From: Escherichia coli
Lineage (GTDB): Bacteria; Pseudomonadota; Gammaproteobacteria; Enterobacterales; Enterobacteriaceae
DNA length: 64,000 nucleotides
Assembly (NCBI RefSeq): GCF_044324875.1
Contig: NZ_CP172185.1
Direction: 5' to 3' (one strand)
This document shows, in pieces, positions 1-59,014 of this stretch; position 1 is the first letter of the stretch; every line of letters starts with the position of its first letter. The position numbers were made by a program, and so were the translations under genes. The notes beneath the pieces were generated by a model. The model was not told where the DNA came from, searched no databases, and worked only from the letters and a program-made list of their open reading frames with translations.

Positions 1-678
1 ACACTTAATGAGTGTACAAAATCGCAGCAATCCGCACTGGTCGTGCTCTGGGAAATCGATCTGACAGAGGTCGGTGGAGAACGTTATTTTTTCTGTAATG
101 AGCAGAACGAAAAAGGTGAGGCGGTCACCTGGCAGGAGCGGCAGTATCAGCCGTATCCCATTCAGGGGAGCGGATTTGAGATGAACGGCAAAGGAGCCAG
201 TGCCAGACCAACACTGAAAGTCTCTAATCTGCACGGTATGGTCACCGGTATGGTGGAAGATATGCAGAGTCTGGTCGGCGGAACGGTGGTCAGGCGTAAG
301 GTTTACGCCCGTTTTCTGGATGCGGTGAACTTCGTCAACGGAAACAGCGACGCCGATCCGGAGCAGGAGGTGATCAGCCGCTGGCGCATCGAGCAGTGCA
401 GCGAACTGAGCGCGGTGAGTGCCTCCTTTGTACTGGCCACGCCGACGGAAACGGACGGCGCTGTTTTTCCGGGACGTATCATGCTGGCCAACACCTGCAC
501 CTGGACCTATCGCGGCGATGAGTGCGGTTATAGCGGTCCGGCGGTCGCGGATGAATATGATCAGCCGACGTCCGATATCACGAAGGATAAATGCAGCAAA
601 TGCCTGAGCGGCTGTAAGTTTCGCAATAACGTCGGCAACTTTGGCGGTTTTCTTTCCATTCACAAACTTTCGCAGTAA
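1..678 (+). CDS. Phage minor tail protein L (lambda gpL-like), 5' end outside the window
   Basis: Frame-1 translation from base 1 (TLNECTKSQQSALVVLWEIDLTEVGGERYFFCNEQNEKGE...) is near-identical to lambda L as I recall it; stop at 676-678. Confidence 0.85.
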   Translation, partial: TLNECTKSQQSALVVLWEIDLTEVGGERYFFCNEQNEKGEAVTWQERQYQPYPIQGSGFEMNGKGASARPTLKVSNLHGMVTGMVEDMQSLVGGTVVRRKVYARFLDAVNFVNGNSDADPEQEVISRWRIEQCSELSAVSASFVLATPTETDGAVFPGRIMLANTCTWTYRGDECGYSGPAVADEYDQPTSDITKDKCSKCLSGCKFRNNVGNFGGFLSIHKLSQ

Positions 679-682
679 TTCC

Positions 683-1426
683 ATGACAGAGACAGAATCA
701 GCGATTCTGGCGCACGCCCGGCGATGTGCGCCAGCGGAGTCGTGCGGCTTCGTGGTGAGAACGCCGGAGGGGGAAAGATATTTTCCCTGCGTGAATATCT
801 CCGGTGAGCCGGAGGATTATTTCCGGATGGCTCCGGAGGACTGGCTGCGGGCAGAAATGCAGGGTGAGATTGTGGCGCTGGTCCACAGCCACCCCGGTGG
901 TCTGCCCTGGCTGAGTGAGGCCGACCGGCGGCTGCAGGTGCAGAGTGATTTGCCGTGGTGGCTGGTTTGCCGGGGGACGATTCATAAGTTCCGCTGTGTG
1001 CCGCATCTCACCGGGCGGCGTTTTGAGCACGGGGTGACGGACTGTTACACGCTGTTCCGCGATGCCTATCATCTTGCAGGTATCGATTTGCCGGATTTTT
1101 ACCGACATGATGACTGGTGGAAATCAGGTCAGAATCTCTATCTTGACAATATGGAGGCGACTGGTTTTTACCGTGTCGCACTGACAGAGGCGCAGCCCGG
1201 CGACGTGCTGCTGTGCTGTTTTGGTTCATCGGTGCCGAATCATGCCGCCATTTACTGCGGCGACGGCGGGCTGCTGCACCATATTCCTGAACAACTGAGC
1301 AAACGAGAGAGGTATACCGACAAATGGCAGCGACGCACACACTCCCTCTGGCGTCACCGGGCATGGCACGCATCTGCCTTTACGGGGATTTGCAACGATT
1401 TGGCCGCCGCATCGACCTTCGTGTGA
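683..1426 (+). CDS. Phage tail assembly protein K (NlpC/P60 plus JAB/MPN metalloprotease-like)
   Basis: MTETESAILAHARRCAPAESCGFVV...; HSHP JAMM-like motif (EIVALVHSHPGGLPWLSEADRRL); position between L and I. Confidence 0.85.
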   Translation: MTETESAILAHARRCAPAESCGFVVRTPEGERYFPCVNISGEPEDYFRMAPEDWLRAEMQGEIVALVHSHPGGLPWLSEADRRLQVQSDLPWWLVCRGTIHKFRCVPHLTGRRFEHGVTDCYTLFRDAYHLAGIDLPDFYRHDDWWKSGQNLYLDNMEATGFYRVALTEAQPGDVLLCCFGSSVPNHAAIYCGDGGLLHHIPEQLSKRERYTDKWQRRTHSLWRHRAWHASAFTGICNDLAAASTFV

Positions 1427-1971
1427 AAACGGGAGCCGAAGCCATCCGGGCGCTGGCCACGCAGCTCCCTGCGTTTCGTCAGAAACTGAGCGACGGCTGG
1501 TATCAGGTGCGTATTGCCGGGCGTGATACAGGCGAAAACGAATTATCAGCCCGTCTTAATGAACCGCTGGCAAATGGTGCCGTGATCCACATCGTGCCGC
1601 GTCTGGCGGGAGCCAAACGTGGTGGTGTGTTTCAGGCAGTGCTGGGCGCGGCGCTGATTGCGGTGGCATGGTGGAACCCTGCAGGCTGGCTGGGGGCTGC
1701 GGCTTTATCGGGCATGTATGCGGCAGGGGCCAGTATGGTGCTCGGTGGTGTGGCGCAGATGCTGGCACCGAAAGCCAGAATGCCCGGAGTATCAGCCACG
1801 GATAACGGCAAACAGAACACCTATTTCTCCTCACTGGATAACATGGTTGCCCAGGGGAATGCTCTGCCCGTTCTGTACGGTGAAATGCGCGTGGGGTCAC
1901 GGGTAATTTCGCAGGAGATCAGCACAGCGGATGAGGGGGATGGCGTCCGGGTTGTGGTGATTGGTCGCTGA
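1324..1971 (+). CDS. Phage tail assembly protein I (lambda gpI-like)
   Basis: MAATHTLPLASPGMARICLYGDLQRFGRRIDLRVKTGAEAIRALATQLPAFRQKLSDGWYQVRIAGRD... matches lambda I; overlaps the K 3' end as in lambda. Confidence 0.85.
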   Translation: MAATHTLPLASPGMARICLYGDLQRFGRRIDLRVKTGAEAIRALATQLPAFRQKLSDGWYQVRIAGRDTGENELSARLNEPLANGAVIHIVPRLAGAKRGGVFQAVLGAALIAVAWWNPAGWLGAAALSGMYAAGASMVLGGVAQMLAPKARMPGVSATDNGKQNTYFSSLDNMVAQGNALPVLYGEMRVGSRVISQEISTADEGDGVRVVVIGR

Positions 1972-3659
1972 TGAAAAACGTTTTATGTGAAACCGCCTCC
2001 GGGCGGTTTTGTCGTTTATGGAGCGTGAGGAATGGGTAAAGGCAGCAGTAAGGGGCATACCCCGCGCGAAGCGAAGGACAACCTGAAGTCCACGCAGTTG
2101 CTGAGTGTGATCGATGTCATCAGCGAAGGGCCGATACAAGGACCGGTGGATGGATTAAAAAGCGTGCTGCTGAACGGTACGCCGGTGCTGGACAGTGAGG
2201 GGAATACCAATATATCCGGCGTCACGGTGGTATTCCGGGCCGGTGAGCAGGAGCAGACGCCGCCGGAGGGATTTGAATCCTCCGGCTCCGAGACGGTGCT
2301 GGGTACGGAAGTGAAGTACGACACGCCGATTACCCGGACCATCACGTCGGCAAACATCGACCGTCTGCGCCTGACCTTCGGTGTGCAGGCACTGGTGGAA
2401 ACCACCTCAAAGGGGGACCGGAATCCGTCGGAAGTCCGCCTGCTGGTTCAGATACAGCGTAACGGTCGCTGGTTAACGGAAAAAGACATCACCATTAAGG
2501 GCAAAACCACCTCGCAGTATCTGGCCTCGGTGGTGGTGGGTAACCTGCCGCCGCGCCCGTTCAGTATCCGGATGCGCAGGATGACGCCGGACAGCACCAC
2601 AGACCAGCTGCAGAACAAAACGCTCTGGTCGTCATACACCGAAATCATCGATGTGAAACAGTGCTACCCGAACACGGCACTGGTCGGTGTGCAGGTGGAT
2701 TCGGAGCAGTTCGGCAGCCAGCAGGTGAGCCGTAATTATCATCTTCGCGGGCGCATTCTGCAGGTGCCGTCGAACTATAACCCGCAGACGCGGCAATACA
2801 GCGGTATCTGGGACGGAACGTTTAAACCGGCATACAGCAACAACCCGGCCTGGTGTCTGTGGGATATGCTGACCCATCCGCGCTACGGCATGGGGAAACG
2901 TGTTGGCGCAGCGGATGTGGATAAATGGGCGCTGTATGTCATCGGCCAGTACTGCGACCAGTCAGTGCCGGACGGCTCTGGTGGCACGGAGCCGCGCATC
3001 ACCTGTAATGCCTGGCTGACCACACAGCGTAAGGCGTGGGATGTGCTCAGTGATTTCTGCTCGGCGATGCGCTGTATGCCGGTATGGAACGGGCAGACGC
3101 TGACGTTCGTGCAGGACCGACCGTCGGATAAGGTGTGGACCTATAACCGCAGTAATGTGGTGATGCCGGATGATGGCGCGCCGTTCCGCTACAGCTTCAG
3201 CGCCCTGAAGGACCGCCATAATGCCGTTGAGGTGAACTGGAGTGACCCGGATAACGGCCAGGAGACGGCGACAGAGCTTGTGGAGGACACGCAGGCCATT
3301 GCCCGTTACGGTCGTAACGTCACGAAGATGGATGCCTTTGGCTGTACCAGCCGGGGGCAGGCACACCGCGCCGGGCTGTGGCTGATTAAAACAGAACTGC
3401 TGGAGACGCAGACCGTGGATTTCAGCGTGGGTGCTGAAGGGCTTCGCCATGTACCGGTGCAAAATGGCATCTGAATCGATCGCAGTTTGGCATTCGAATC
3501 GATCATGATTTGGCATCCATCTCCGATCACAGTTTGGCATCACAATCGATCACGATTTGGCATGCTTCCGATCATTGATTGGCATCCTGCCAGTCACTCC
3601 GGGAATTAACTCTTTTCACCACAGTCTCCATTGCCGTGTTTAAACCAGTGGAGACGTCA

Positions 3660-5225
3660 ATGTCCAGAAAGAGAAAATCCAGGAGCACTATGGAAACCTG
3701 TTTTAAGATCCTTCAGCTCAAGTTCGACAAGAAGCTGACTAACCGTTGTATCGGACTGACGTTACACATCAGCGCCTCAACCGTTTTTGAGGTTCTTGCC
3801 CGCTTCAAAGCCTCTTCTCTGTCATGGCCATTACCTGCTGATATATCCCATGACACGCTGGAGAAACTCATTTTTCCGCCCAAAGACACCTTTGCATCAG
3901 AGCTTGTAATGCCTGACATGTTGTACTTCGATACGGAAATGAGAAAACCAGGTGTGACGCGGCAACTGTTGTGGATGGAATACAAGGCACAGGCGGGTAA
4001 CAAAGCGATGGGATACTCGCACTTCTGCCGTTGCTACCGGGAGTGGAAAAAAACGCGACGTCTCTCCATGCGCCAGGAGCATCGTGCCGGCGAAAAGCTT
4101 TTTATCGACTTCTGTGGTCCTACGGTTCCTGTTATTAATCCGGACACCGGTGAGATACGCCGCGTGGCAATCTTCGTGGCCGTAATGGGGGCGTCCAACT
4201 ATACCTACGTTGAAGCGTGCGAAGGTCAGGACATGATGTCATGGTTAAATGCCCACAGCCGTTGCCTGACCTTCCTGGGCGGCGTACCGAAGCTGCTCAT
4301 CCCCGATAACCTCAGAAGCGCAGTGAAAAAGGCCGATCGATATGAGCCTGTCATCAACGACAGTTATCAGGCACTGGCTGAGCACTATGGCACGGTTATC
4401 ATCCCGGCCCGACCACGCAAACCTAAAGATAAACCAAAAGCAGAAAACGGCGTCCTCATCGTTGAACGATGGCTTCTTGCCCGCATCCGTAATGAAACCT
4501 TCCACACGCTCAGGGCGCTGAATGCGCGCCTTAGGGAGTTACTGACAGACATGAATAACCGGCCAATGAAGGGGTACGGCAATCAAACCCGTGCAGAACG
4601 CTTCCGCATACTGGATGCGCCAGCACTCTCTCCGCTGCCTCTGGCACCTTATGAATACACGGAATACAAAGCTGTGAAGGTTGGCCCTGACTACCACGTT
4701 GAATATGCCCGTCACTGGTACTCCGTTCCACACGAACTGGTCGGTCAGCGTCTGTCACTGAAGGCGGGGCAGTCGGTGGTACAGCTCTGGCACAAGGGGC
4801 AGTGTGTGGCGCAACATCCGCGCAGCACACATGAATATAAACACACAACCAATCCGCTTCACATGCCAGAGCGCCACCGGCAGCACGGGACATGGACACC
4901 GGAACGCCTGATCGAGCAGGGAAAACGTACGGGCCCGTCCACAGGCCGGGTGGTTGAATCCATGCTGAAGGCAAAACCCCATCCGGAACTGGCTTATCGT
5001 GCAGTTCTGGGGCTGCTGGCACTTCAGAAAAAATACGGCCCGGAACGGCTGGAAAAGGCCTGTTACGTTGCCCTGCACTATAACGCCCCTGACAGACGCT
5101 TTATCGACAATCTGCTGCGTCACCATCGGGAGAACCTGGAGCTTCCATTATCCCGCCAGGGCGAACAACATCCGGCATATGCTTCAGAGCATGAAAACCT
5201 GCGTGGTCCGGGCTACTACCACTGA
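3660..5225 (+). CDS. istA: IS21-family transposase IstA
   Basis: About 520 aa with N-terminal HTH region (...LSWPLPADISHDTLEKL...) and an IstA-like central/C-terminal region; start chosen at ATG 3660, upstream alternative start possible. Confidence 0.75.
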   Translation: MSRKRKSRSTMETCFKILQLKFDKKLTNRCIGLTLHISASTVFEVLARFKASSLSWPLPADISHDTLEKLIFPPKDTFASELVMPDMLYFDTEMRKPGVTRQLLWMEYKAQAGNKAMGYSHFCRCYREWKKTRRLSMRQEHRAGEKLFIDFCGPTVPVINPDTGEIRRVAIFVAVMGASNYTYVEACEGQDMMSWLNAHSRCLTFLGGVPKLLIPDNLRSAVKKADRYEPVINDSYQALAEHYGTVIIPARPRKPKDKPKAENGVLIVERWLLARIRNETFHTLRALNARLRELLTDMNNRPMKGYGNQTRAERFRILDAPALSPLPLAPYEYTEYKAVKVGPDYHVEYARHWYSVPHELVGQRLSLKAGQSVVQLWHKGQCVAQHPRSTHEYKHTTNPLHMPERHRQHGTWTPERLIEQGKRTGPSTGRVVESMLKAKPHPELAYRAVLGLLALQKKYGPERLEKACYVALHYNAPDRRFIDNLLRHHRENLELPLSRQGEQHPAYASEHENLRGPGYYH

Positions 5226-5241
5226 CAGAAGGAACAACAGT

Positions 5242-5997
5242 ATGAGTGATAACCTGTTAAACAAACTGACCCAACTGAAACTCCCGGCGATGGCCGGGAG
5301 CCTGATACGGCAGCGGGAAACGCCTCAGACCTACGACGAACTGTCGTTCGAGGAAAGGCTGACGCTGCTGGTTGATGACGAGCTTCTGAGCAGGGAAAAC
5401 AGCCGTGTGGCACGGTTGAGAAAAAATGCCGGCCTGAAATACCAGGCAACACCGGAAGGGCTGCGCTATCCGGCCTCAAGAGGTCTGCGGGCTGAACAGA
5501 TGAGAGAACTGCTGAACGGCCACTACATAACCCACAGGAAAAACCTGCTGATAACCGGTCCGACAGGATGTGGCAAGAGCTGGATAGCCAATGCGCTGGG
5601 CGAACAGGCATGTCGACAGAAACACAGCGTCCGGTACTGTAGAACCGGGCGATTACTGGAACAACTGGCTCAGGGACGTGTTGATGGCAGCTGGCTGAAA
5701 TATCTGAAACAGTTGCAAAAAATACAGGTTCTAATCCTGGACGATCTGGGGCTGGAACAGTTAAGTAACGCCCAGTGTAATGACCTTCTGGAGCTCATAG
5801 AGGATCGTTACGGACAAAGCAGCACGATAGTGGTAAGCCAGTTCCCGGTAGATAAATGGCATGGTCTGATGGAGAACCCAACAACAGCAGATGCCATCCT
5901 GGACAGACTGGTACATAACTCACACCGAGTGGTCCTTCAGGGAGAGTCACTGAGGAAAAATCCCCCGGTAGTGGAAAGCAGCGAAAAAACGCGTTAA
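5242..5997 (+). CDS. istB: IS21-family helper ATPase IstB
   Basis: 251 aa; Walker A GPTGCGKSWIANALG; Walker B LILDDLG; typical IstB size and position after istA. Confidence 0.85.
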   Translation: MSDNLLNKLTQLKLPAMAGSLIRQRETPQTYDELSFEERLTLLVDDELLSRENSRVARLRKNAGLKYQATPEGLRYPASRGLRAEQMRELLNGHYITHRKNLLITGPTGCGKSWIANALGEQACRQKHSVRYCRTGRLLEQLAQGRVDGSWLKYLKQLQKIQVLILDDLGLEQLSNAQCNDLLELIEDRYGQSSTIVVSQFPVDKWHGLMENPTTADAILDRLVHNSHRVVLQGESLRKNPPVVESSEKTR

Positions 5998-8218
5998 AAA
6001 GCGGTAGAAAAAGTTAAGTTCCCGGTTGATCGAATGGATGCGAATCGCTGATCGGACTTCGATGCCAATCCGTGATCGAATAGAGCGGAATACGCATACC
6101 GGGCGATGTCATTGAAATCTGTGATGATGACTATGCCGGTATCAGCACCGGTGGTCGTGTGCTGGCGGTGAACAGCCAGACCCGGACGCTGACGCTCGAC
6201 CGTGAAATCACGCTGCCATCCTCCGGTACCACGCTGATAAGCCTGGTTGACGGAAGTGGCAATCCGGTCAGCGTGGAGGTTCAGTCCGTCACCGACGGCG
6301 TGAAGGTAAAAGTGAGCCGGGTTCCTGACGGCGTTGCCGAGTACAGCGTGTGGGGGCTGAAGCTGCCGACGCTGCGCCAGCGCCTGTTCCGCTGCGTGAG
6401 TATCCGTGAGAACGACGACGGCACGTATGCCATCACTGCCGTGCAGCATGTACCGGAAAAAGAGGGCATCGTGGATAACGGGGCACACTTTGACGGTGAC
6501 CAGAGCGGCACGGTGAATGGTGTCACGCCGCCAGCAGTGCAGCACCTGACTGTCGAAGTCACCGCAGACAGCGGGGAGTATCAGGTACTGGCCCGCTGGG
6601 ACACGCCGAAGGTGGTGAAAGGCGTGAGTTTCATGCTTCGCCTGACCGTGGCAGCGGATGACGGCAGTGAGCGGCTGGTCAGCACGGCCCGGACGACGGA
6701 AACCACATACCGCTTCAGGCAGCTGGCGCCGGGGAACTACAGGCTGACAGTCCGGGCAGTAAATGCCCGGGGGCAGCAGGGAGACCCGGCGTCGGTATCG
6801 TTCCGGATTGCCGCACCGGCAGCGCCGTCGCGGATTGAGCTGACGCCGGGCTATTTTCAGATAACCGCCACGCCGCATCTTGCCGTTTATGATCCGACGG
6901 TGCAGTTTGAGTTCTGGTTCTCGGAAAAGCGGATTACCGATATCAGGCAGGTTGAAACCACAGCCCGTTATCTTGGTACCGGAAGTCAGTGGCTTGTCTC
7001 CGGCCAGAATATTAAACCTGGCCATGATTATTACTTTTATATCCGCAGTGTTAACACTGTCGGTAAATCGGCATTCGTGGAGGCAGTCGGTCGGGCGAGT
7101 AATGATCCTGCCGGTTACCTTAATTTTTTCAGGGGGGCGATAAATAAAACGCATCTGGGACGGGAGATCAATGAACGCATTGATGCCTCTGCACGGCGCA
7201 CTGAAGTTGAGCAACTGGAGAATGCGATTAACCGCGAAATGACGCAGCTGGAGAATGCGATTAACCGCGAAATGACGCAGCTGGAGAAAGATGTGAGGCA
7301 GCGTGCGGAGCGTGATATCGCAGAGGTGACGAAAAAAATCACGGCGTCTGAAAACAGCATAACGGAACTGGTGGCGAAAAAGAGCGGTGAACAGTCGCTG
7401 GCCATTGCGAAAGTCGACAGGAAAGTTGACAGCGTGAGCAGTGAAATCCGGCAGACAGTAAGCAGGAGCACGGAGGAGAACAGCCGACAGATAGCGCAGG
7501 TCAGGCAGTATGTTGATGATAAAAGTGCGCAAATAAGTACTGTTGTGGCGAAAAAGAGCGGTGAACAGTCAATGGCCATTGCGGAAGTTGACAGAAAAGT
7601 TGACAGGATGGGCAGCGAAATCCGGCAGACAGTAAGCAGGAGCACGGAGGAGAACAGCCGACAGATAGCGCAGATCAGACAGTATGTTGATGATAAGGGA
7701 AGTCAGATCAAACAGAGCACGGATAAAAAACTGGGATCCTGGAATGCCAGCATTGAGCAGATACAGAAAGTTCAGGAGGACACGCGCCGGAACCTGAACA
7801 GCATGTGGGCTGTGAAGCTGCAGCAGACACGGGATGGACGTCTCTATATTGCAGGTATTGGTGCCGGAATCGAAAATACGTCTGACGGAATTCAGAGTCA
7901 GATCCTGATGCAGGCAGATCGTATTGCGATGATTAACCCGGAAAATGGCAATACAACACCTTTGTTTGTGGCTCAGGGTGATCAGCTGTTCATGAATGAT
8001 GTTTTCATGAAAAAACTGACCGTGGATTTTGCCAGAGTGACGGGAGATATCCGGTCAGATAATTTTCATTCCGGTAGTCCGGGGTGGCGTTTATCAAGAA
8101 ACGGCAGCCTTGAAATTAACTCAGGAAGGCCCGGCGCAGGCCGCCTGTTTTTCAATGGCGAGCGAATCGACGTATATGACGATAACAATGTGTTAAGAGT
8201 ACGACTGGGGAGACTGTA

Positions 8219-8479
8219 ATGTTCGGAGTCCGGGTATGGCGCAAAGGGCGCCTTGTGACACATGAAATAAACCCAACAGGGGTGCTGGATGTGATCACTG
8301 AAGGGACGGGGCAGCGTTCTTATACTCCTTTGCAGGGCTGGCGTCTGGAAGTCTGTTCACCGGCCATTCTGATTAACGGTCAGGGAAGTCATACCAGTGC
8401 CAGTGTATCCGGCTGGACAGTGCACTATGCCAACACAAGCTGGCTAAGACCCGTGCTGGTCATGATAAGGGGGATCTGA
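8219..8479 (+). CDS. Hypothetical phage protein, translationally coupled to J (TAATG overlap)
   Basis: 86-aa ORF starting on the J stop codon; no motif I can recognise. Confidence 0.4.
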   Translation: MFGVRVWRKGRLVTHEINPTGVLDVITEGTGQRSYTPLQGWRLEVCSPAILINGQGSHTSASVSGWTVHYANTSWLRPVLVMIRGI

Positions 8480-9141
8480 TGTTTGCACTTAAATTAACTG
8501 ATGAGCGGGGGAGAGAATGGATATCACCTGTTGCGCCGCCACTGAACCTTGTGCGCCGTTTTCATTTCACACTGAGTGCGCGTGATGCGGTGATGCAGTT
8601 TATCGACACCGGGGTGCCGACGAATTATCGTTGCGTGATTTTTATTAAACAGATAAGCGGTAATCAGTCCTTCCATGGTGAAATGGTTCAGCTTAACGGT
8701 ACCTGGCAGTATGACATTTTCAGCGCTGGTACAGGGCAGGAGCCGGGCATGGAACAGGACAGCACATATGTTGTTTATGTTTTTGCCAACATGGTGAATG
8801 TATGGCCGCAATGGGGAATACAGTTGTGCGACAGTCATGGCAGGGTGGTCTGGAACACGGAAATGCTGCCACTGGAAGTAAAAATGACGCGAATATGGGA
8901 AAAGGATGTACCGATCAGTGTGGGACATGATGTGGCCGTAATGCCGGGGTGTACCCAGTGGACGACAGTTCAGGAAGGGGAGAGTTATTACTGGTATACC
9001 GCCAGTTTTAATGCCAGAAACTCACAGTTATGGCGTCAGTCAACTTTTGCTGAAGATAACGTAGCGGCGCCCAATGATAATTCAGGTGTTGTTAATAACC
9101 TCTGTTATTACATAAATGCAGAAATTTATGATGCGTACTGA
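8479..9141 (+). CDS. Hypothetical phage protein (tail-associated or moron), coupled by TGATG overlap
   Basis: 220-aa ORF, Trp/Tyr-rich, no recognisable catalytic motif; sits between J and the side tail fiber. Confidence 0.45.
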   Translation: MFALKLTDERGREWISPVAPPLNLVRRFHFTLSARDAVMQFIDTGVPTNYRCVIFIKQISGNQSFHGEMVQLNGTWQYDIFSAGTGQEPGMEQDSTYVVYVFANMVNVWPQWGIQLCDSHGRVVWNTEMLPLEVKMTRIWEKDVPISVGHDVAVMPGCTQWTTVQEGESYYWYTASFNARNSQLWRQSTFAEDNVAAPNDNSGVVNNLCYYINAEIYDAY

Positions 9142-9162
9142 TAGTTATGTTGAGGGCATGTA

Positions 9163-9408
9163 ATGAAAATAATCGTCTGCACTTTTTTGCTGTTTCTTGT
9201 ATCAGGTTGCGCGGGGTACCGTTCCGTTACGGAGAGAGTCCGGTGCACCGGTGTGCTGAGTCCCGGGGTTTTACAGCGAGCTTATACGGTAGATCTTACA
9301 GGGAAAATAGAAACGAAAAGCGGCACTGTGTATAAAGTATCAGCTCCGAGATTTTATGGTCAGTGGGTGAGTGAAGATATGTTTACGAAAGTTTCGTGCG
9401 TGAAGTAA
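9163..9408 (+). CDS. Small phage lipoprotein, candidate Cor-like superinfection-exclusion protein
   Basis: 81 aa; signal peptide with lipobox MKIIVCTFLLFLVSGC; lies where lom/cor-type genes sit in lambdoid phages. Function is inferred. Confidence 0.5.
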   Translation: MKIIVCTFLLFLVSGCAGYRSVTERVRCTGVLSPGVLQRAYTVDLTGKIETKSGTVYKVSAPRFYGQWVSEDMFTKVSCVK

Positions 9409-9483
9409 TCATAAAAACACCCGATTGTAAATGAATGACGACGCCCGCAATTTTGCGGGATTATTTTTATTTGTGGAGCGAGT

Positions 9484-10812
9484 ATGGCGGCTGTAAAAAT
9501 TTCAGGCGTGCTCAGGGACGGAACCGGAAAACCGGTACCGGGATGCATTATTGAGCTGAAAGCGAAGAGAACCAGCGAGACAGTCATCGCCACGACAGTG
9601 GCTTATGGCATGCCGGAAGAGACGGGGAGTTACAGTATGGATGTGGAGCCAGGAATATACAGGGTGACACTCAATACAGAAGGTTACCGTCCTTCGTATG
9701 TGGGAGATATCGTGGTCAGGGAGGATTCTTCACCGGGAACACTGAATAAATTTCTGATGGAGATGGAAGATGCTCCTTATTATCCGAAGGCGTTGTCAGA
9801 GCTGGAGGCTGTGGTGCAGTCCATACTGCACAGAGCAGAGTCCGCGGCATCTGAGGCGGAGGAAGCCCGGAAGCGAGCAGCATCTGCCCGGGGACCACGA
9901 GGAGAGAAAGGGGATACCGGCGCTCGTGGTGAAAGAGGCATTACCGGGCCACAGGGGCCAAAAGGTGAAACAGGAGCACGTGGCCCGGCAGGACCACAGG
10001 GACCAAAAGGTGAAACAGGTGAACGCGGTCCGGCAGGTCCACAGGGACCAAAGGGCGATACAGGTGAACGCGGCCCGGCAGGTCCACAGGGACCAAAAGG
10101 TGAAACAGGTGCACGTGGTCCGGAAGGTCCACAGGGAGCAAAAGGTGAAACAGGTGAACGCGGCCCGGCAGGTCCACAGGGAGCAAAGGGCGAAACAGGT
10201 GCACGTGGTCCGGAAGGCCCTCAGGGTCTGAAGGGAGAAAAGGGTGAGCGAGGAGAAAAAGGCCCTAAGGGGGATAAAGGAGATCCGGGAGGTCCACAGG
10301 GACCAAAAGGTGAAACAGGTGAACGTGGCCCGGCAGGTCCACAGGGACCAAAAGGTGAAACAGGTGAACGTGGCCCGGCAGGTCCACAGGGACCAAAGGG
10401 CGATACAGGTGAACGCGGTCCGGCAGGTCCACAGGGGCCAAGAGGGTATACAGGTGAACGCGGGCCGACAGGTCTACAGGGGCCAAGAGGGTATACAGGT
10501 GAACGCGGGCCGGCAGGTCCACAGGGGCCAAGAGGAGAAGCGGGGCGGCCAGCGAGCGTCGGAAGTGTTTATTCCGTGGGGTCTTATGTTCTGGGGATCA
10601 TAGAACGAAATCATGAGATAACAAATACCCGTCAAATACCCGGGTATCGTATCAGACAGGCCGTTATTGTGTCGTCGTCATCGGATAAACTTACAGATAT
10701 CCGCTTTTTATTTGGCAATCCTATGCTTGGTACATGGATGTTATGCACAACTAACATGGCGGTGAATAATATCAGTGGGACGATTTGGGGCCTGTTTCAG
10801 AGAATACTGTGA
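9484..10812 (+). CDS. Prophage side tail fiber protein with collagen-like Gly-X-Y repeat region
   Basis: N-terminus [29 protein letters not shown]... resembles the Stf N-terminal domain of E. coli prophages; about 220 aa of GxY triplets ([19 protein letters not shown]...). Confidence 0.8.
9886..10548 (+). repeat. Tandem, roughly 45-bp coding repeats (collagen-like Gly-X-Y) inside the tail fiber gene
   Basis: Repeated [15 protein letters not shown] units at nucleotide level; the ORFs in other frames and on the opposite strand over this stretch are repeat artefacts. Confidence 0.8.
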
Positions 10813-11002
10813 CAGGGGGAGAAATGAATGAAGGTCGATAAAATCACGTCACCAGTGTGGGCTGACAGGGGTCATACGACCATAAACTGTATAGTGAAGT
10901 TTTCAGACGCGGAAACAGAATGTGTATTTACAGCAAGTGCGGATGATCCGTAACCGGCTCATTTAAACCGTCTGGTCTGTTTCCTCCGGCTCTACAAAAA
11001 TA

Positions 11003-11680
11003 ATGTCCATCATTTTTAATGGACACTATCGTATGAAACACCGGACCTGGATCACTGAAGCTTTACGTCTTCACTTTGAAGAACATTTACCCCGGGTTGT
11101 GGCCGGGCGTCGCCTGGGTGTACCAAAATCAACAGTTTGTAGTATGTTCGTGCGCTTTCGGAGAGCTGGCCTTTCGTGGCCTTTGCCCGCAGGCATGTCG
11201 GAGCAGGAACTTGATGCCTGCCTTTACGGACAATTTTCCACGGTACCAGTCGTACGTCCTGAAAGCACCGTTATATCCGAAGCCCCCGTGGTAAAAAAAC
11301 GTCCCCGGCGGCCCAACTTCCCTTATGAGTTTAAAATCGCCTTAGTGGAGCAGTCACTGCAGCCCGGAGCCTGTGTGGCGCAGATCGCCCGGGAAAACGG
11401 AATCAACGATAACCTGCTCTTCAACTGGCGCCATCAATACCGGAAAGGTGGCCTGCTGCCTTCCGGAAAAAATATGCCGGCACTGCTTCCCGTGACGTTA
11501 ACGCCGGAGCCGGATAATAAAATCCCGGCCCCCGCACAGGAACCAGAGCAGATAAATACACCGTCCGACAGTCTGTGTTGTGAGCTGGTTCTGCCGGCCG
11601 GAACTCTCAGGCTTAAAGGTAAACTGACGCCGGCGTTATTACAGACACTTATCCGCGAAATAAAAGGGAGCAGCCACTGA
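11003..11680 (+). CDS. tnpA: IS66-family accessory protein (orfA/TnpA) with N-terminal HTH extension
   Basis: C-terminal part ...PNFPYEFKIALVEQSLQPGACVAQIARENGINDNLLFNWRHQYRKG is IS66 orfA-like; N-terminal part carries an LSWPLPA HTH-like motif. Start codon uncertain. Confidence 0.7.
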   Translation: MSIIFNGHYRMKHRTWITEALRLHFEEHLPRVVAGRRLGVPKSTVCSMFVRFRRAGLSWPLPAGMSEQELDACLYGQFSTVPVVRPESTVISEAPVVKKRPRRPNFPYEFKIALVEQSLQPGACVAQIARENGINDNLLFNWRHQYRKGGLLPSGKNMPALLPVTLTPEPDNKIPAPAQEPEQINTPSDSLCCELVLPAGTLRLKGKLTPALLQTLIREIKGSSH

Positions 11681-12027
11681 TGATATCTCTCCCTGCAGGT
11701 TCGCGTATCTGGCTGGTTGCAGGTATCACCGATATGCGAAATGGCTTTAACGGCCTGGCATCAAAAGTTCAGAACGTCCTGAAGGATGACCCGTTCTCCG
11801 GACACCTGTTCATCTTCCGCGGACGCCGGGGTGACCAGATAAAAGTGTTGTGGGCTGACAGTGACGGACTGTGCCTCTTCACCAAACGCCTGGAGCGGGG
11901 CCGCTTCGTCTGGCCAGTCACCCGTGACGGCAAGGTGCACCTTACTCCGGCTCAGTTATCCATGCTTCTTGAAGGTATCAACTGGAAGCACCCGAAACGA
12001 ACGGAACGCGCTGGAATCCGCATATAA
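11680..12027 (+). CDS. tnpB: IS66-family TnpB (Orf2)
   Basis: 115 aa MISLPAGSRIWLVAGITDMRNGFNGLASKVQNVL...; overlapping start with orfA stop. Confidence 0.85.
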   Translation: MISLPAGSRIWLVAGITDMRNGFNGLASKVQNVLKDDPFSGHLFIFRGRRGDQIKVLWADSDGLCLFTKRLERGRFVWPVTRDGKVHLTPAQLSMLLEGINWKHPKRTERAGIRI

Positions 12028-12046
12028 CCCGTTGTAAAGTGAGGAT

Positions 12047-13618
12047 ATGGACACCTCACTTGCTCATGAGAACGCCCGCCTGCGGGCACTGTTGCAGACG
12101 CAACAGGACACCATCCGCCAGATGGCTGAATACAACCGCCTGCTCTCACAGCGGGTGGCGGCTTATGCTTCCGAAATCAACCGGCTGAAGGCGCTGGTTG
12201 CGAAACTGCAACGTATGCAGTTCGGTAAAAGCTCAGAAAAACTTCGTGCAAAAACCGAACGGCAGATACAGGAAGCACAGGAGCGAATCAGCGCACTTCA
12301 GGAAGAAATGGCGGAAACGCTGGGTGAGCAATATGACCCGGTACTGCCATCCGCCCTGCGCCAGTCTTCAGCCCGTAAACCGTTACCGGCCTCACTTCCC
12401 CGTGAAACCCGGGTTATCCGGCCGGAAGAGGAATGCTGTCCTGCCTGTGGTGGTGAACTCAGTTCTCTGGGATGTGATGTGTCAGAGCAACTGGAGCTTA
12501 TCAGCAGCGCCTTTAAGGTTATCGAAACACAACGTCCGAAACAGGCCTGTTGCCGGTGCGACCATATCGTGCAGGCACCAGTACCTTCAAAACCCATTGC
12601 ACGCAGTTATGCCGGAGCGGGGCTTCTGGCCCATGTTGTCACCGGGAAATATGCAGACCATCTGCCGTTATACCGCCAGTCAGAAATATACCGTCGTCAG
12701 GGAGTGGAGCTGAGCCGTGCCACACTGGGGCGCTGGACAGGTGCTGTTGCTGAACTGCTGGAGCCGCTGTATGACGTCCTGCGCCAGTATGTGCTGATGC
12801 CCGGTAAAGTCCATGCTGATGATATCCCCGTCCCGGTCCAGGAGCCGGGCAGCGGTAAAACCCGGACAGCCCGGCTGTGGGTCTACGTCCGTGATGACCG
12901 TAACGCCGGTTCACAGATGCCCCCGGCGGTCTGGTTCGCGTACAGTCCGGACCGGAAAGGTATCCATCCACAAAATCACCTGGCCGGTTACAGCGGTGTG
13001 CTTCAGGCCGATGCTTACGGTGGTTACCGGGCGTTATACGAATCCGGCAGAATAACGGAAGCCGCGTGTATGGCTCATGCCCGGAGAAAAATCCACGATG
13101 TGCATGCAAGAGCGCCCACCTACATCACCACGGAAGCCCTGCAGCGTATCGGTGAACTGTATGCCATCGAGGCAGAGGTCCGGGGCTGTTCAGCAGAACA
13201 GCGTCTGGCGGCAAGAAAAGCCAGAGCCGCGCCACTGATGCAGTCACTGTATGACTGGATACAGCAACAGATGAAAACACTGTCGCGTCACTCAGATACG
13301 GCAAAAGCGTTCGCATACCTGCTGAAACAGTGGGATGCACTGAACGTGTACTGCAGTAATGGCTGGGTGGAAATCGACAACAACATCGCAGAGAACGCCT
13401 TACGGGGAGTGGCCGTAGGCCGGAAAAACTGGATGTTCGCGGGTTCCGACAGCGGTGGTGAACATGCGGCGGTGTTGTACTCGCTGATCGGCACATGCCG
13501 TCTGAACAATGTGGAGCCAGAAAAGTGGCTGCGTTACGTCATTGAACATATCCAGGACTGGCCGGCAAACCGGGTACGCGATCTGTTGCCCTGGAAAGTT
13601 GATCTGAGCTCTCAGTAA
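12047..13618 (+). CDS. tnpC: IS66-family transposase TnpC
   Basis: 523 aa; N-terminal coiled coil, Cys cluster CCPACGGEL...CCRCDH, DDE-type catalytic region. Confidence 0.85.
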
Positions 13619-14475
13619 ATATCAATACGGTTCTGACGAGTCGCTTACGATGATCCTGAGTCTTACGGTCGTGAAATATTTGAAGCCTGCATAAGAGGTG
13701 ATGCAGGGCCGGTAGGTGAGTACCGGGCAAATGATGATATGGCTGTGGAAGAAGCACGCAGGATGAAAAACGCGGAGATAAATGCCTGGCGTGATGCGAT
13801 GGAGGCGTCAGGGTATGTTTTTGAGCACAGAGGACGGAAATGGGATTATGGAAAGGAAACCATGACACGTCTTGGAATGTCGGCATCAGCGGCCAGAGGC
13901 GGTGTGTTGCCGGAAGGATTTTTCTGGACGGACGCAGAGAATAATGATGTACCGATGACGGCAGATGAACTGATATCCCTGAGTGATGCTGCTGGTAAAG
14001 CGATGTTCAGGAAAGGCCTTGAAATACATATAAGGCAAAGGGAGATGAAAAAGGCAATAGCAGAACTGAGTGACAGTGAAACCATTCTGGCGTACAGGGT
14101 TGGATGGTGAAACTGATAAAAAAACCCCTCTGAAAATTCTGTCAGAGGGGGGCAAGGATCTATATTTATTATGCGGTAATGCTTTCACTCCGGTAATTAA
14201 TTTCAGTGATTAACTGCTTTCGATCAATAAAGGAATTGCAAAAAGGTGATCTTGTTCACGACATTGTGGATGATAATATGCCTGATGTCTGAATCCGGAA
14301 ACAGTGATCTGGCGGGTTTCATGTGAAGTTGACGGATAAAAAATCCGCACGACCAGACAGACGTGCGGTTTACGAAATTCGTAACAAGAGGCTTTTCTAG
14401 GGATCACGTGGTGCGTGCCACGTGAAATTTTTGTAGCGCAAAATGTGTAATGTGTAAATACAAGGAAGGAAAAAG

Positions 14476-14805
14476 TTAAATCGGTGGAAGTCCATACCGG
14501 GAACGTGCACGGTTACATGCTTCGTTTTCAATACCATTTTCACCAGACATGGCAAATTCCCGGCACGTTGATGAACGGTTTTCGTAGATGGTACAGCTCG
14601 CTTCTTTACCTGGTGTTCCTGCAAGGGCAATACATCTGGGGTTTTTCTGGTTTGTACCGATCATGCATCGGTGCAAAGGCGATACTTGTTCAGTAAGTCT
14701 GGCTGGAATGGTGCCGCCAGCATCGTCGGCTTCGGCCCAGTAAAAAGAGACGCGGAAAAATGCACAACAGGCACCACACGTTATGCATGGATTTGGATTG
14801 CTCAT
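14476..14805 (-). CDS. Small Cys-cluster protein (CxxCxxCC, YkgJ/UPF0153-like putative zinc or iron chelating domain) at the prophage edge
   Basis: 109 aa [28 protein letters not shown]...; motif C-x2-C-x2-C-C plus further conserved Cys. Confidence 0.5.
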
Positions 14806-15166
14806 AATTCACCACAGCTATAAATTATAAAGAAAACCGCAGCATGTCGTATGCAAGAACGTGCTGCAGCTGGCTGGTTAACTTTCGATAGTGCGAGTAT
14901 TGAATGATTTCCAGCCGTTACCGATTTTATATAACTGCAGTGGAATTATTCAACACAGGCAAAACGGAATAAGCTGAGAAAAAAGCGTACTTTCCCAATC
15001 TGGGGCAAATCACGTCTGAATGACACCTGACAACAGATGGTGGCCTCAAGAAGGCTTGGAATATTCTTCTTTAATGTTATGTAAATTATTGATTTTTCGT
15101 GTACGATTTTAAGACATTTATTCCAAGAAAAATTTTTAACTCTTTGATTTTTCGACTCTGTATCAT

Positions 15167-15228
15167 CGGTCTCGAAAACCGGAGTAGGGGCAACTCTACC
15201 GGGGGTTCAAATCCCCCTCTCTCCGCCA
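15167..15228 (+). other. Prophage attachment site (attR): 62-nt 3' fragment of the tRNA-Ser (CGA, serU-type) gene without the 5' half
   Basis: CGGTCTCGAAAACCGGAGTAGGGGCAACTCTACCGGGGGTTCAAATCCCCCTCTCTCCGCCA matches the 3' part of tRNA-Ser from the anticodon stem onward; no complementary GGAGAGA acceptor strand upstream. Confidence 0.75.
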
Positions 15229-15895
15229 CTTTATCAATGACTTATCTCCCGACTTCCCGCCTTGCTTTTCCTAAACAGAACAATCGTAGAATATTCTTGA
15301 AGGGTTAGATCGTCACTGTTTTCTGTTCGATACTGTGACATTCAGCACTTGATTCGCTATGGATCTGACAGGAAGGTTTCGAGCGAAAATCTGCAATTAT
15401 TCAGTCGTTTTCTTATCGGTCACCATTATTCTTTTAGACATTGATCCTACAAAGCTGCCGCAAAGTTGGTGGTGGGAACTGAAGTTGCGTAGAGAAGTGG
15501 TCAATAATTGAGCAAAAAAAGGAACGCGGCCGTCAGATTAAAGCCGCGGGACAAAGTCCATAATTTCCAAGAGTTGTTGAATTTCCCAGCTTTTTTGAAA
15601 GCCTTCGTATCATACTAACAAGTAAAAAAGGTTTAAATACCAAAATTAACCTATATTTCTGGTTAGCTTTACCATGACAGATGACTTGCTCCTGGAGACA
15701 TTGGCGCAGCCAGTCTGTATTGGTGAGTTGTGTATTTATTGTTCGCCGTTTTCTCAGTTTTTTCTACAGACATAATAAAAAAGACACGTCTCAAGCATGA
15801 GCGTGTCTGAGTTTGTCTTATTTATTTGTCTTGGTAAATTATTGTCGTTACTACCAGGCACTGTTCTGTTAAATAATTGAATCAGCGAAAAAAAA

Positions 15896-16546
15896 TCAAT
15901 GAGACATCATTTCCTCGACCACTTCTTCGCTACTCAACTGATAGGGATAATACGTTGGCCAGTTTTCCATTTCATTTAATAAAGATTGCTGTGAATCATT
16001 ACCCATAAAAATGTGAAAATGAGATGATTTTCGTGGTGCAATTATATGATCGCTAAATTGAATATATTTAGGGGCTTTGCTTTCAGGATCTTTACATTCG
16101 AATAAATAACGAACGCCTTTCTTACCTGATTTATAGGTGAGTATTTTGTATCCATCGTAATCATATTTACAGGATGTTGTTTCATTATTTCTATGGAATT
16201 CAACAATGCCGTCCTCAATGCCAATCATCTCGATATCTGTCACATAACCTTTGCGATAATAATCTTTAATTTCAGCAAATGTTTTGGTTTTATCTGCATC
16301 CGCTTTCTTCTGAAAGACGGGGTCAAGTTTGCCACTTTGCAGTAAAGGATAAACGGATTGCCATACTCCATCCCAGTCACTTAGCGTTCGGTTTTGTACA
16401 TTGGCATCATCAAAAACACCATTAGCAGCTTTTTGTTCGACCTCTGTTAAGGGTTTGCCGTGTGAGTGATGACCATGCGAAAAGGCAGGAGCGCTAACAA
16501 TAAAGACACCTAAAGCAACAGCCAGTTTATGAAGACGAATCGCCAA
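15896..16546 (-). CDS. zinT: Zinc/cadmium-binding periplasmic protein ZinT
   Basis: 216 aa; signal peptide then His-rich HGHHSHG; matches ZinT (YodA). Confidence 0.95.
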
Positions 16547-23870: not shown

Positions 23871-24498
23871 TATGTATTCCCTTGTGATTATAATCTTCAT
23901 GAATATATCAATAAGTGCCGTTATCCAAAAAAAAGCACATTTGGATACTATTCTATGAAGTTCATTTTATTTTAAAGATTACATGTAACAAATATATTTA
24001 AAAGATTTCAAAATGTTTCTAATCTATTTAATATAATTCAGAATTATGAATTCTAAATATAAATATTCATGAAAATTATAAATGTATATCAATATGTTAT
24101 GAGTTGAGCGGAAACATAGGGGGTATCAATGATTGTTGCGCCAAACGGCTGGTGTGATCACGCGCACATTAATGAAGGCATAAAAAAAGCCGGCATCATG
24201 CCGGCCCAAAAAAAATAAACAAGACGATAAAAGGCTAATAACGGAAGCATCATGACACAGAATAATAAAAAGGTATAATTGTAATCAGTGCTAATATATT
24301 GATTGAATGAATTAATAAAGCCGATATCAAAGATAAATAAAATCGCTCAAAACGATTTTTCCTGTATTCACTGCCGTTGCGCAAAAATTATCTATTTGTT
24401 CAAAAAATGATTGAGTCTTGACTGGCTCATCCAATGTGGAAAAATGTGACTTTTATCACATAATAGTACTAAGTCTGAATTTTCCGGGTTATCTCAAA

Positions 24499-32605: not shown

Positions 32606-32693
32606 AACACATCAGATTTCCTGGTGTAACGAATTTTTTAAGTGCTTCTTGCTTAAGCAAGTTTCATCCCGACCCCCTCAGGGTCGGGATTTT
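32606..32693 (+). ncRNA. dsrA: Small regulatory RNA DsrA
   Basis: AACACATCAGATTTCCTGGTGTAACGAATTTTTTAAGTGCTTCTTGCTTAAGCAAGTTTCATCCCGACCCCCTCAGGGTCGGGATTT; matches DsrA, with the terminal stem-loop and U tract. Confidence 0.9.
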
Positions 32694-57307: not shown

Positions 57308-59014
57308 ATGGCACAAGTCATTAATACCAACAGCCTCTCGCTGATCACTCAAAATAATATCAACAAGAACCAGTCTGCGCTGTCGAGTTCTATCGAGCGT
57401 CTGTCTTCTGGCTTGCGTATTAACAGCGCGAAGGATGACGCCGCGGGTCAGGCGATTGCTAACCGTTTTACTTCTAACATTAAAGGCCTGACTCAGGCTG
57501 CACGTAACGCCAACGACGGTATTTCTGTTGCACAGACCACCGAAGGCGCGCTGTCCGAAATCAACAACAACTTACAGCGTATTCGTGAACTGACGGTTCA
57601 GGCCACTACCGGTACTAACTCTGATTCGGATCTGGACTCCATCCAGGACGAAATCAAATCTCGTCTGGACGAAATTGACCGCGTATCCGGTCAGACCCAG
57701 TTCAACGGTGTGAACGTACTGGCGAAAGACGGTTCGATGAAAATTCAGGTTGGTGCGAACGACGGCCAGACTATCACGATTGATCTGAAGAAAATTGACT
57801 CAGATACGCTGGGTTTGAATGGTTTTAACGTTAATGGCAAAGGTACTATTGCGAACAAAGCTGCTACAGTCAGCGATCTGACCGCTGCTGGTGCAACGGG
57901 AACAGGTCCTTATGCTGTGACCACAAACAATACAGCTCTCAGCGCTAGCGATGCACTGTCTCGCCTGAAAACCGGAGATACAGTTACTACTACTGGCTCG
58001 AGTGCTGCGACCTATACTTATGATGCGGCTAAAGGGAACTTCACCACTCAAGCAACAGTTGCAGATGGCGATGTTGTTAACTTTGCAAATACTCTGAAAC
58101 CAGCGGCTGGCACTACTGCATCAGGTGTTTATACTCGTAGTACTGGTGATGTGAAGTTTGATGTAGATGCTAATGGCGATGTGACCATCGGTGGTAAAGC
58201 CGCGTACCTGGACGCCACTGGTAACCTATCTACAAACAACGCCGGCATTGCATCTTCAGCAAAATTGTCCGATCTGTTTGCTAGCGGTAGTTCTTTAGCG
58301 ACAACTGGTTCTATCCAGCTGTCTGGCACAACTTATAACTTTGGTGCAGCGGCAACTTCTGGCGTAACCTACACCAAAACGGTAAGCGCTGATACTGTAC
58401 TGAGCACAGTACAGAGTGCTGCAACGGCTAACACAGCAGTTACTGGTGCGACAATTAAGTATAATACAGGTATTCAGTCTGCAACTGCGTCCTTCGGTGG
58501 TGCTAATACTAATGGTGCTGGTAATTCGAATGACACCTATACTGATGCAGACAAAGAGCTTACCACAACCGCATCTTACACTATCAACTACAACGTCGAT
58601 AAGGATACCGGTACAGTAACTGTAGCTTCAAATGGCGCAGGTGCAACTGGTAAATTTGCAGCTACTGTTGGCGCACAGGCTTATGTTAACTCTACAGGCA
58701 AACTGACCACTGAAACCACCAGTGCAGGCACTGCAACCAAAGATCCTCTGTCTGCCCTGGATGAAGCAATCAGCTCCATCGACAAATTCCGTTCATCCTT
58801 GGGTGCTATCCAGAACCGTCTGGATTCCGCGGTCACCAACCTGAACAACACCACTACCAACCTGTCCGAAGCGCAGTCCCGTATTCAGGACGCCGACTAT
58901 GCGACCGAAGTGTCCAACATGTCGAAAGCGCAGATCATCCAGCAGGCCGGTAACTCCGTGCTGGCAAAAGCTAACCAGGTACCGCAGCAGGTTCTGTCTC
59001 TGCTGCAGGGTTAA
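57308..59014 (+). CDS. fliC: Flagellin FliC (H antigen), 568 aa
   Basis: Conserved N-terminus MAQVINTNSLSLITQNNINKNQSALSSSIERLSSGLRINSAKDDAAGQAIANRF and C-terminus ...VPQQVLSLLQG with a long Thr/Ala/Gly-rich variable centre. Confidence 0.97.
   Translation: MAQVINTNSLSLITQNNINKNQSALSSSIERLSSGLRINSAKDDAAGQAIANRFTSNIKGLTQAARNANDGISVAQTTEGALSEINNNLQRIRELTVQATTGTNSDSDLDSIQDEIKSRLDEIDRVSGQTQFNGVNVLAKDGSMKIQVGANDGQTITIDLKKIDSDTLGLNGFNVNGKGTIANKAATVSDLTAAGATGTGPYAVTTNNTALSASDALSRLKTGDTVTTTGSSAATYTYDAAKGNFTTQATVADGDVVNFANTLKPAAGTTASGVYTRSTGDVKFDVDANGDVTIGGKAAYLDATGNLSTNNAGIASSAKLSDLFASGSSLATTGSIQLSGTTYNFGAAATSGVTYTKTVSADTVLSTVQSAATANTAVTGATIKYNTGIQSATASFGGANTNGAGNSNDTYTDADKELTTTASYTINYNVDKDTGTVTVASNGAGATGKFAATVGAQAYVNSTGKLTTETTSAGTATKDPLSALDEAISSIDKFRSSLGAIQNRLDSAVTNLNNTTTNLSEAQSRIQDADYATEVSNMSKAQIIQQAGNSVLAKANQVPQQVLSLLQG

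Follow-up and report, generated by a model that had tools for sequence, protein, structure and literature searches.

The DNA that we have analyzed is a window of 64,000 nucleotides from Escherichia coli (contig NZ_CP172185.1 of assembly GCF_044324875.1), and all positions given below without further indication refer to it. Its left end, positions 1–15166 on the + strand, is the right (tail) part of a lambdoid prophage, according to PHROG matches and to the gene calls in related genomes. Four lambdoid tail genes come first: L (to 678), K, which codes for a C40 peptidase (683–1426), I (1324–1971) and the gene for the central fibre J (2032–8219), which is interrupted. They are followed by two small ORFs (8219–9141), a tail fibre gene with collagen-like repeats (9484–10812), an interrupted DUF4376 gene (10828–14110) and a gene of the YkgJ family (CxxCxxCC) on the minus strand (14476–14805). 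The last part of the prophage, 14972–15166 (+ strand), is an AT-rich non-coding region, which is conserved at the same place in related genomes. It is joined to a 62 nt fragment of a tRNA-Ser gene (15167–15228), and its GC content is only 34%, against 61% in the fragment. From this point on, the DNA is chromosomal.

Apart from two IS elements, window positions 1–15235 are collinear with the serU prophage of strain TUM1886, with 98.5–99.4% identity. The first of these elements (3458–6096, + strand) belongs to the IS21 family and splits gpJ. It contains an IstA-like ORF (3579–5225) and an IstB-like ORF (4999–5997), it matches the IS21 transposase model NF033546 with 284 bits, and it also gives PHROG matches to a transposase and to a DnaC-like protein. 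The element is missing at that point in TUM1886, in strain AR_0085 and in a related locus (L005). The second one (10950–13648, + strand) is an ISCro1-like element of the IS66 family, with tnpA (11003–11680), tnpB (11680–12027) and tnpC (12047–13618), a 478 bit match to NF033517 and a 98.6% match to the ISCro1 of AR_0085. It splits the DUF4376 gene, which is uninterrupted in L005: The two flanks overlap by 8 bp, the target duplication. With one IS element inside gpJ and another inside the DUF4376 gene, the prophage is probably defective for tail assembly. None of the complete E. coli genomes matches window positions 1–15300 with a coverage of 80% or more. Among indexed proteins, exact copies are absent for gpK and for the truncated N-terminal fragment of J, the tail fibre is found only in short contigs from other strains, and the YkgJ-family protein in a single contig of 556 bp.

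Two other details of this region may be mentioned. The tail fibre gene contains a long array of collagen-like repeats of about 45 nt (9946–10539), whose copy number varies between the window and its relatives. In addition, PGAP annotates a "capsid protein" pseudogene near the junction. We considered whether it might be a misannotated tRNA fragment, but it maps at about 14861–14929, upstream of the non-coding region.

The 62 nt fragment reads CGGTCTCGAAAACCGGAGTAGGGGCAACTCTACCGGGGGTTCAAATCCCCCTCTCTCCGCCA on the + strand. It is identical in all 62 positions to nucleotides 29–90 of serU, the 90 nt tRNA-Ser(CGA) gene, of K-12 MG1655, and likewise to the same nucleotides in the serU gene of strain JNE25-001. 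A preliminary description, made from the letters alone, had given exactly these limits, this length and this identification. The fragment starts with the second base of the anticodon stem and includes everything up to the CCA end. To the right, identity with the serU locus of K-12 and JNE25-001 extends past the 3' end of the gene into the native chromosomal flank. To the left, homology with serU ends between 15166 and 15167, so that only the first base in the 5' strand of the anticodon stem is left out.

The same description held that the 5' acceptor strand is missing and that no complete tRNA would be predicted here, and both statements are correct. The 28 nt at the 5' end of serU, which include the 5' strand of the acceptor stem and the D arm, are absent throughout the 64 kb window, even when up to three mismatches are allowed. 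ARAGORN finds no tRNA genes in the window, and a search of the whole window with Rfam at the gathering threshold detects no tRNA either, only DsrA and RseX. When the region 14900–15500 is searched with Rfam at E ≤ 1, again no tRNA appears: The T arm alone scores, as a fragment of the tRNA/tmRNA clan. All matches at this low threshold are due to chance or partial: Apart from the T arm of tmRNA, they are sX4 and, in the opposite strand, a plastid 3'UTR model. The 25 nt at the 3' end of the fragment occur only once in the window, and no chance matches are expected. A functional tRNA-Ser(CGA) gene should code for a complete cloverleaf. Since the 5' acceptor strand and the D arm are missing and the anticodon stem is incomplete, lacking its first base, the fragment is not a tRNA gene. 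A scan for promoters and terminators around it gives no signal above the expectation from shuffled sequences, so its presence as an expressed RNA or as a terminator is unsupported.

The DNA to the right of the fragment is the native 3' flank of serU (15229–15675, + strand), collinear with the region downstream of serU in K-12, TUM1886 and JNE25-001. It is followed by 220 bp (15676–15895) which take the place of 995 bp in K-12 containing yodB, the gene for a cytochrome b561. Next comes zinT on the minus strand (15896–16546), an ORF which matches annotated zinT genes in all relatives. The fragment had been described as lying next to zinT. This is true here, but only because the lineage lacks yodB: The same structure is found in JNE25-001, which has no prophage at this site, and in many other strains. 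Since a prophage-free strain shares it, the loss of yodB is a lineage polymorphism unrelated to the prophage.

JNE25-001 also provides the comparison with an empty site which the preliminary description had proposed. It has an intact serU where the fragment stands, with mtfA and asnT upstream. Window positions 15167–43998 form a single collinear alignment with this genome (99.1% identity), and the native gene order is kept without interruption for 28.8 kb to the right, from zinT through msrQP and hprRS to the fli genes. The homology with the empty site thus breaks at 15167, the 5' edge of the fragment, where phage DNA gives way to native chromosome.

Further to the right, the window contains a few features of other kinds. 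The small RNA genes rseX (24182–24271, minus strand) and dsrA (32606–32692, + strand) are full length according to Rfam and lie in their native chromosomal context. In comparison with JNE25-001, an insertion of about 3.0 kb (45288–48293) adjoins fliE and an intG-like pseudogene. It codes for a transposase of the IS1380 family, ISEcp1-like (45477–46739), for a 291 amino acid extended-spectrum beta-lactamase of the CTX-M family which scores above the NCBIfam cutoff (47027–47902), and for an ORF of 106 amino acids: It is a chromosomal ISEcp1-blaCTX-M unit. Residues V77, D114, S140, D240 and N288 of the enzyme would fit CTX-M-1. The central part of fliC (57845–58757) does not align with JNE25-001 and represents a different H-antigen allele; its flanks are 98–99% identical.

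A partial 3' copy of a tRNA gene, without its 5' part, placed between a prophage and the chromosome, is the structure of an attR site. It is very probable, in our opinion, that a lambdoid prophage has integrated in the tRNA-Ser(CGA) gene serU, that 15167–15228 is the core of its right junction, attR, and that the 62 nt on the + strand (serU nt 29–90) are its identity block. The AT-rich region 14972–15166 would be the phage arm of this site (P arm), and the native flank its B' side. According to this model, the attP site of the phage would carry its own copy of the last 62 nt of serU, between the P arm and a P' arm running into the integrase gene. The tyrosine integrase would exchange strands inside the anticodon stem-loop. 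At the integrase-proximal end (attL), the 5' part of the bacterial gene and the 3' part brought by the phage would together form a complete serU again. At the end with the tail genes (attR), the displaced bacterial 62 nt would remain joined to the phage P arm. The only role of the fragment would then be to serve as one of two directly repeated sites for excision by integrase and excisionase.

In order to see how frequent this junction is, we searched 5426 complete E. coli genomes with a 240 bp probe (15047–15286). At least 80% of the probe, with P arm and core joined, is covered in 838 of them. In most other genomes, homology starts at position 121 of the probe, which corresponds to window position 15167, inside an annotated tRNA-Ser. 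Among the matches listed, the genomes with the junction generally have a second place homologous to serU: The six with full coverage have two places each. A reciprocal probe, formed by the intact serU and the following integrase end of TUM1886, is covered in 1146 of the 5426 genomes, and each of these places is annotated as tRNA-Ser next to a tyrosine-type recombinase/integrase.

These results bear on a different origin of the fragment: serU might have been truncated by a spontaneous or IS-mediated deletion, in a strain which simply has no serU. The window does contain elements of the IS21, IS66 and IS1380 families, the far end of the prophage lies outside it, and serU is dispensable in Salmonella (bioRxiv 10.1101/2024.04.04.588050). 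Nevertheless, the DNA which abuts 15167 is not the end of an IS, and a conserved phage arm is joined to the same base in 838 genomes. The second serU-homologous place in the junction-bearing genomes among the matches listed also speaks against a deletion, as does a matching attL in the two junction genomes whose far end we have examined, TUM1886 and AR_0085. Finally, the break falls at the anticodon stem, as an integrase predicts. A simple deletion is therefore very improbable.

The two genomes just mentioned (TUM1886, NZ_CP128970.1; AR_0085, NZ_CP029741.1) have the same attR junction, and their tail regions are 98–99% identical to that of the window. They differ from it in that gpJ is intact and yodB is present. 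AR_0085, which shares with the window all 240 bp of the junction (100% identity), also has its ISCro1 at another position in the serU prophage and an extra IS5. In TUM1886, an intact serU is found at the other end of the prophage, 40.3 kb from the 62 nt fragment. The gene for a tyrosine integrase lies 27 nt downstream of this serU; a DUF4224 gene and one for an exonuclease come next. AR_0085 has the same arrangement of intact serU, tyrosine integrase and DUF4224 gene, with extra IS elements and a span of 49.3 kb. In TUM1886, the distance between serU and the point equivalent to window position 1 is 30.4 kb. If the prophage is collinear with that of TUM1886, an intact serU and the integrase should lie about 30 kb to the left of the window, and the total size of the prophage would be about 45.6 kb, including 5.3 kb of IS elements. 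The head modules of the two relatives are different, HK97-type in one and lambda-type in the other, so the left part of the prophage in our strain cannot be deduced from them in detail. An intact copy of serU in this strain is likely but not guaranteed, given that the gene is dispensable, at least in Salmonella (bioRxiv 10.1101/2024.04.04.588050).

It might also be that the attR is genuine but belongs to a remnant, and that the integrase-proximal part, possibly with attL, is lost or now lies elsewhere. Signs of decay are evident in the prophage: Two IS elements have entered its tail genes, and the window as a whole contains three. Replacements and deletions are frequent in serU prophages (PMC7067040), and in three relatives the integrase gene bears the PGAP label "frameshifted". 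On the other hand, the 15 kb of the window are otherwise collinear and 98–99% identical with complete prophages of 40–49 kb, and the junction genomes among the matches listed, including the six with full coverage, have a second serU-homologous place. We regard a remnant as unlikely. As to the frameshifted integrases (L004, 9596–10646; L013, 1099–2149; L017, 1710–2760), the supposed frameshift is at the extreme 3' end of the gene, where it overlaps the P' arm and its CTTGGAAT repeats. In TUM1886, a frame of about 340 amino acids is open, including the C-terminal His/Tyr motif.

The position of the crossover may be narrowed down by comparing both ends of the prophage. In TUM1886 and AR_0085, the variable arm of the serU gene at attL shows two compensatory substitutions with respect to the native gene, A48G and T59C. 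The attR of both genomes has the native A48 and T59, as does the window (15186 and 15197). Judging from this comparison, G48 and C59 are of phage origin. As they appear at attL while attR is native, the 3' part of the rebuilt tRNA would come from the phage, and the strands would be exchanged between 15167 and 15185. We infer the same interval for the prophage in the window: 15167–15185 (+ strand) contains the anticodon loop CTCGAAA between inverted stem arms. The anticodon loop is a classic sublocation for tyrosine integrases. The preliminary description had placed the prophage boundary at 15167. The homology does break there, but the recombination point lies somewhere within these positions, with no sharp edge: The right boundary of the defective prophage is thus fixed to within 19 bases.

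A configuration corresponding to attP is found in genome UID2309220036, at a junction of tandem prophages. The order is P arm, core (with G48 and C59), P' arm and integrase. This confirms that the arm to the left of 15167 and the arm on the integrase side belong to one attP. In this genome, which has four serU-homologous places, the junction is preceded by cdtB-cdtC cargo (L017, 1–2963). Our search for an attP with this integrase in free phages gave only prophage-derived "partial genome" records, which include bacterial flank.

The P arm is kept beside the core in the 838 genomes, among them TUM1886 and AR_0085, and in the phage records ev099, mEp332 and PhiR70_1. It contains several repeated motifs. 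The sequence CTTGGAATATTCT (15055–15067, + strand) is a candidate arm-type site for the integrase, as suggested by its conservation and by the recurrence of the motif CTTGGAAT. A second, inverted candidate site is found at 15116–15127 on the minus strand (TTTATTCCAAG on the + strand; inverted repeat I1). The motif CTTGGAAT is thus present twice in the P arm, at 15055 and 15120, in inverted orientation, and three tandem copies are found in the P' arm of TUM1886, beside the integrase. There is also a direct repeat with a spacing of 55 nt (family D1): The two copies of TTGATTTTTCG, at 15089–15099 and 15144–15154, both on the + strand, are a candidate site for an accessory protein. Its core is TGATTTTT. 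Strain 118 has an espJ prophage with a much diverged P arm, in which the CTTGGAAT motifs and the repeated TGATTTTT persist as conserved islands.

The layout may be compared with that of lambda, whose attR has the structure P-O-B', with arm sites P1 and P2 on one side and P'1 to P'3 on the other, and whose recombination depends on Int, Xis and IHF. Both systems have a tyrosine integrase, the integrase gene is beside P', and attR is at the end of the tail genes and b region. The repeated motifs, two on P and three on P', may be the counterpart of P1/P2 and P'1–3. There are also differences. The attB site of lambda is intergenic, with a common core of 15 bp. In the serU prophage, the common block is formed by 62 nt of a tRNA gene, or about 79 nt if mismatches are included, and the target is the anticodon stem-loop. 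The serU prophage agrees in this respect with the anticodon-loop class of integration sites in tRNA genes, which was reportedly described by Williams in 2002 (Nucleic Acids Res; cited in PMC9897764). The identity block goes from the anticodon stem to the 3' end of the gene, the arms of the stem flank the 7 nt loop, in which the exchange should occur, and the 3' fragment is at the distal end. The fragment is a textbook instance of this class.

Several related prophages have been described. The serU gene harbors prophage Sp14 of O157:H7, which lies between yodB and tRNA-Ser(cga) and has 43.7 kb (PMC8190617). Sp14, or CP-933U, shares the integration site, the lambdoid character and the approximate size (about 43.7 kb; PMC8190617). 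The locus is also a published hotspot for prophages and islands in O121:H19 (PMC8767318) and O145:H28 (PMC7067040). The espJ prophage of strain 118, which is Sp14-like, has the same core and the conserved motif islands in its P arm, which is about 90% identical and only partly alignable, and it carries type III effector cargo (espJ). A closer case is prophage SerU-LTIIb of E. coli strain 41, whose GenBank record (KU052038.1) annotates a 62 nt tRNA-Ser pseudogene identical to 15167–15228. This prophage is also lambdoid and located at serU, its pseudogene follows the side-tail-fibre genes and precedes yodB, and its P arm is related. It differs in the last 30 nt or so of the P arm, in the genes for the LT-IIb enterotoxin, in the presence of yodB downstream and in the absence of IS21 and IS66 insertions. 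As serU is a published hotspot and the exact pseudogene has been annotated in KU052038.1, the feature is already known and ordinary: The window contains one more instance of it. That integrating elements leave partial tRNA genes behind is a recognized problem of annotation (PMC9897764). The tRNA-like sequence is explained and should not be annotated as a gene; beyond a clean annotation, nothing changes.

A different kind of element is found at serU in strain STLIN_13 (L018, 1116–2572). It has a pilV shufflon and its own tyrosine integrase, and its duplication of the tRNA is limited to the last 14 nt. The integrase gene is found at a distance of 165 bp from this partial copy, towards zinT, an arrangement opposite to that of the lambdoid prophages. 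It had been assumed that such a fragment marks the end distal to the integrase. This holds in the family of phages considered here, but it is not universal, as STLIN_13 has its integrase beside the partial copy.

The junction is also found away from serU. Phages ev099, mEp332 and PhiR70_1, which have the lambda integrase, carry a block formed by the P arm, the 62 nt and 278 bp of the chromosomal flank of serU. It is located in their b region, with tfa on one side and an appY-like gene of the AraC type on the other, and the lambda attP core and the lambda int gene lie downstream of it (L008, phage ev099, 3501–4040; also L009, L010 and L014, 5001–7802), and IS2 remnants adjoin it. At least 152 complete E. 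coli genomes contain the block in lambda-site prophages; in NCTC9041, for instance, it is found at the bio-proximal end of such a prophage. Since lambda-like phages carry this flank, we considered whether the DNA to the right of the fragment in the window could be the P' arm of the phage. We have rejected this possibility: The flank directly follows an intact serU in prophage-free strains, the true P' arm on the integrase side has a different sequence, and the phages which carry the flank have the lambda Int and the lambda attP core, as seen in the 7 kb of those phages that we inspected.

Such blocks could likewise suggest that the fragment in the window is a fossil attR which a phage or prophage integrated elsewhere would carry as cargo in its b region, so that 15167 would not be a prophage boundary. 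The three phages and the 152 genomes are a precedent, but in the window the chromosomal homology runs for 28.8 kb and does not end after 278 bp. This refutes the proposal, to which we assign a practically negligible probability. An attR junction can arise only by integration, so the block in the lambda-integrase phages looks like a captured serU attR junction, the fixed scar of an old event of aberrant excision similar to specialized transduction. We would give even chances to this origin. If it is correct, the block could provide the lambda-integrase phages with homology to the serU locus.
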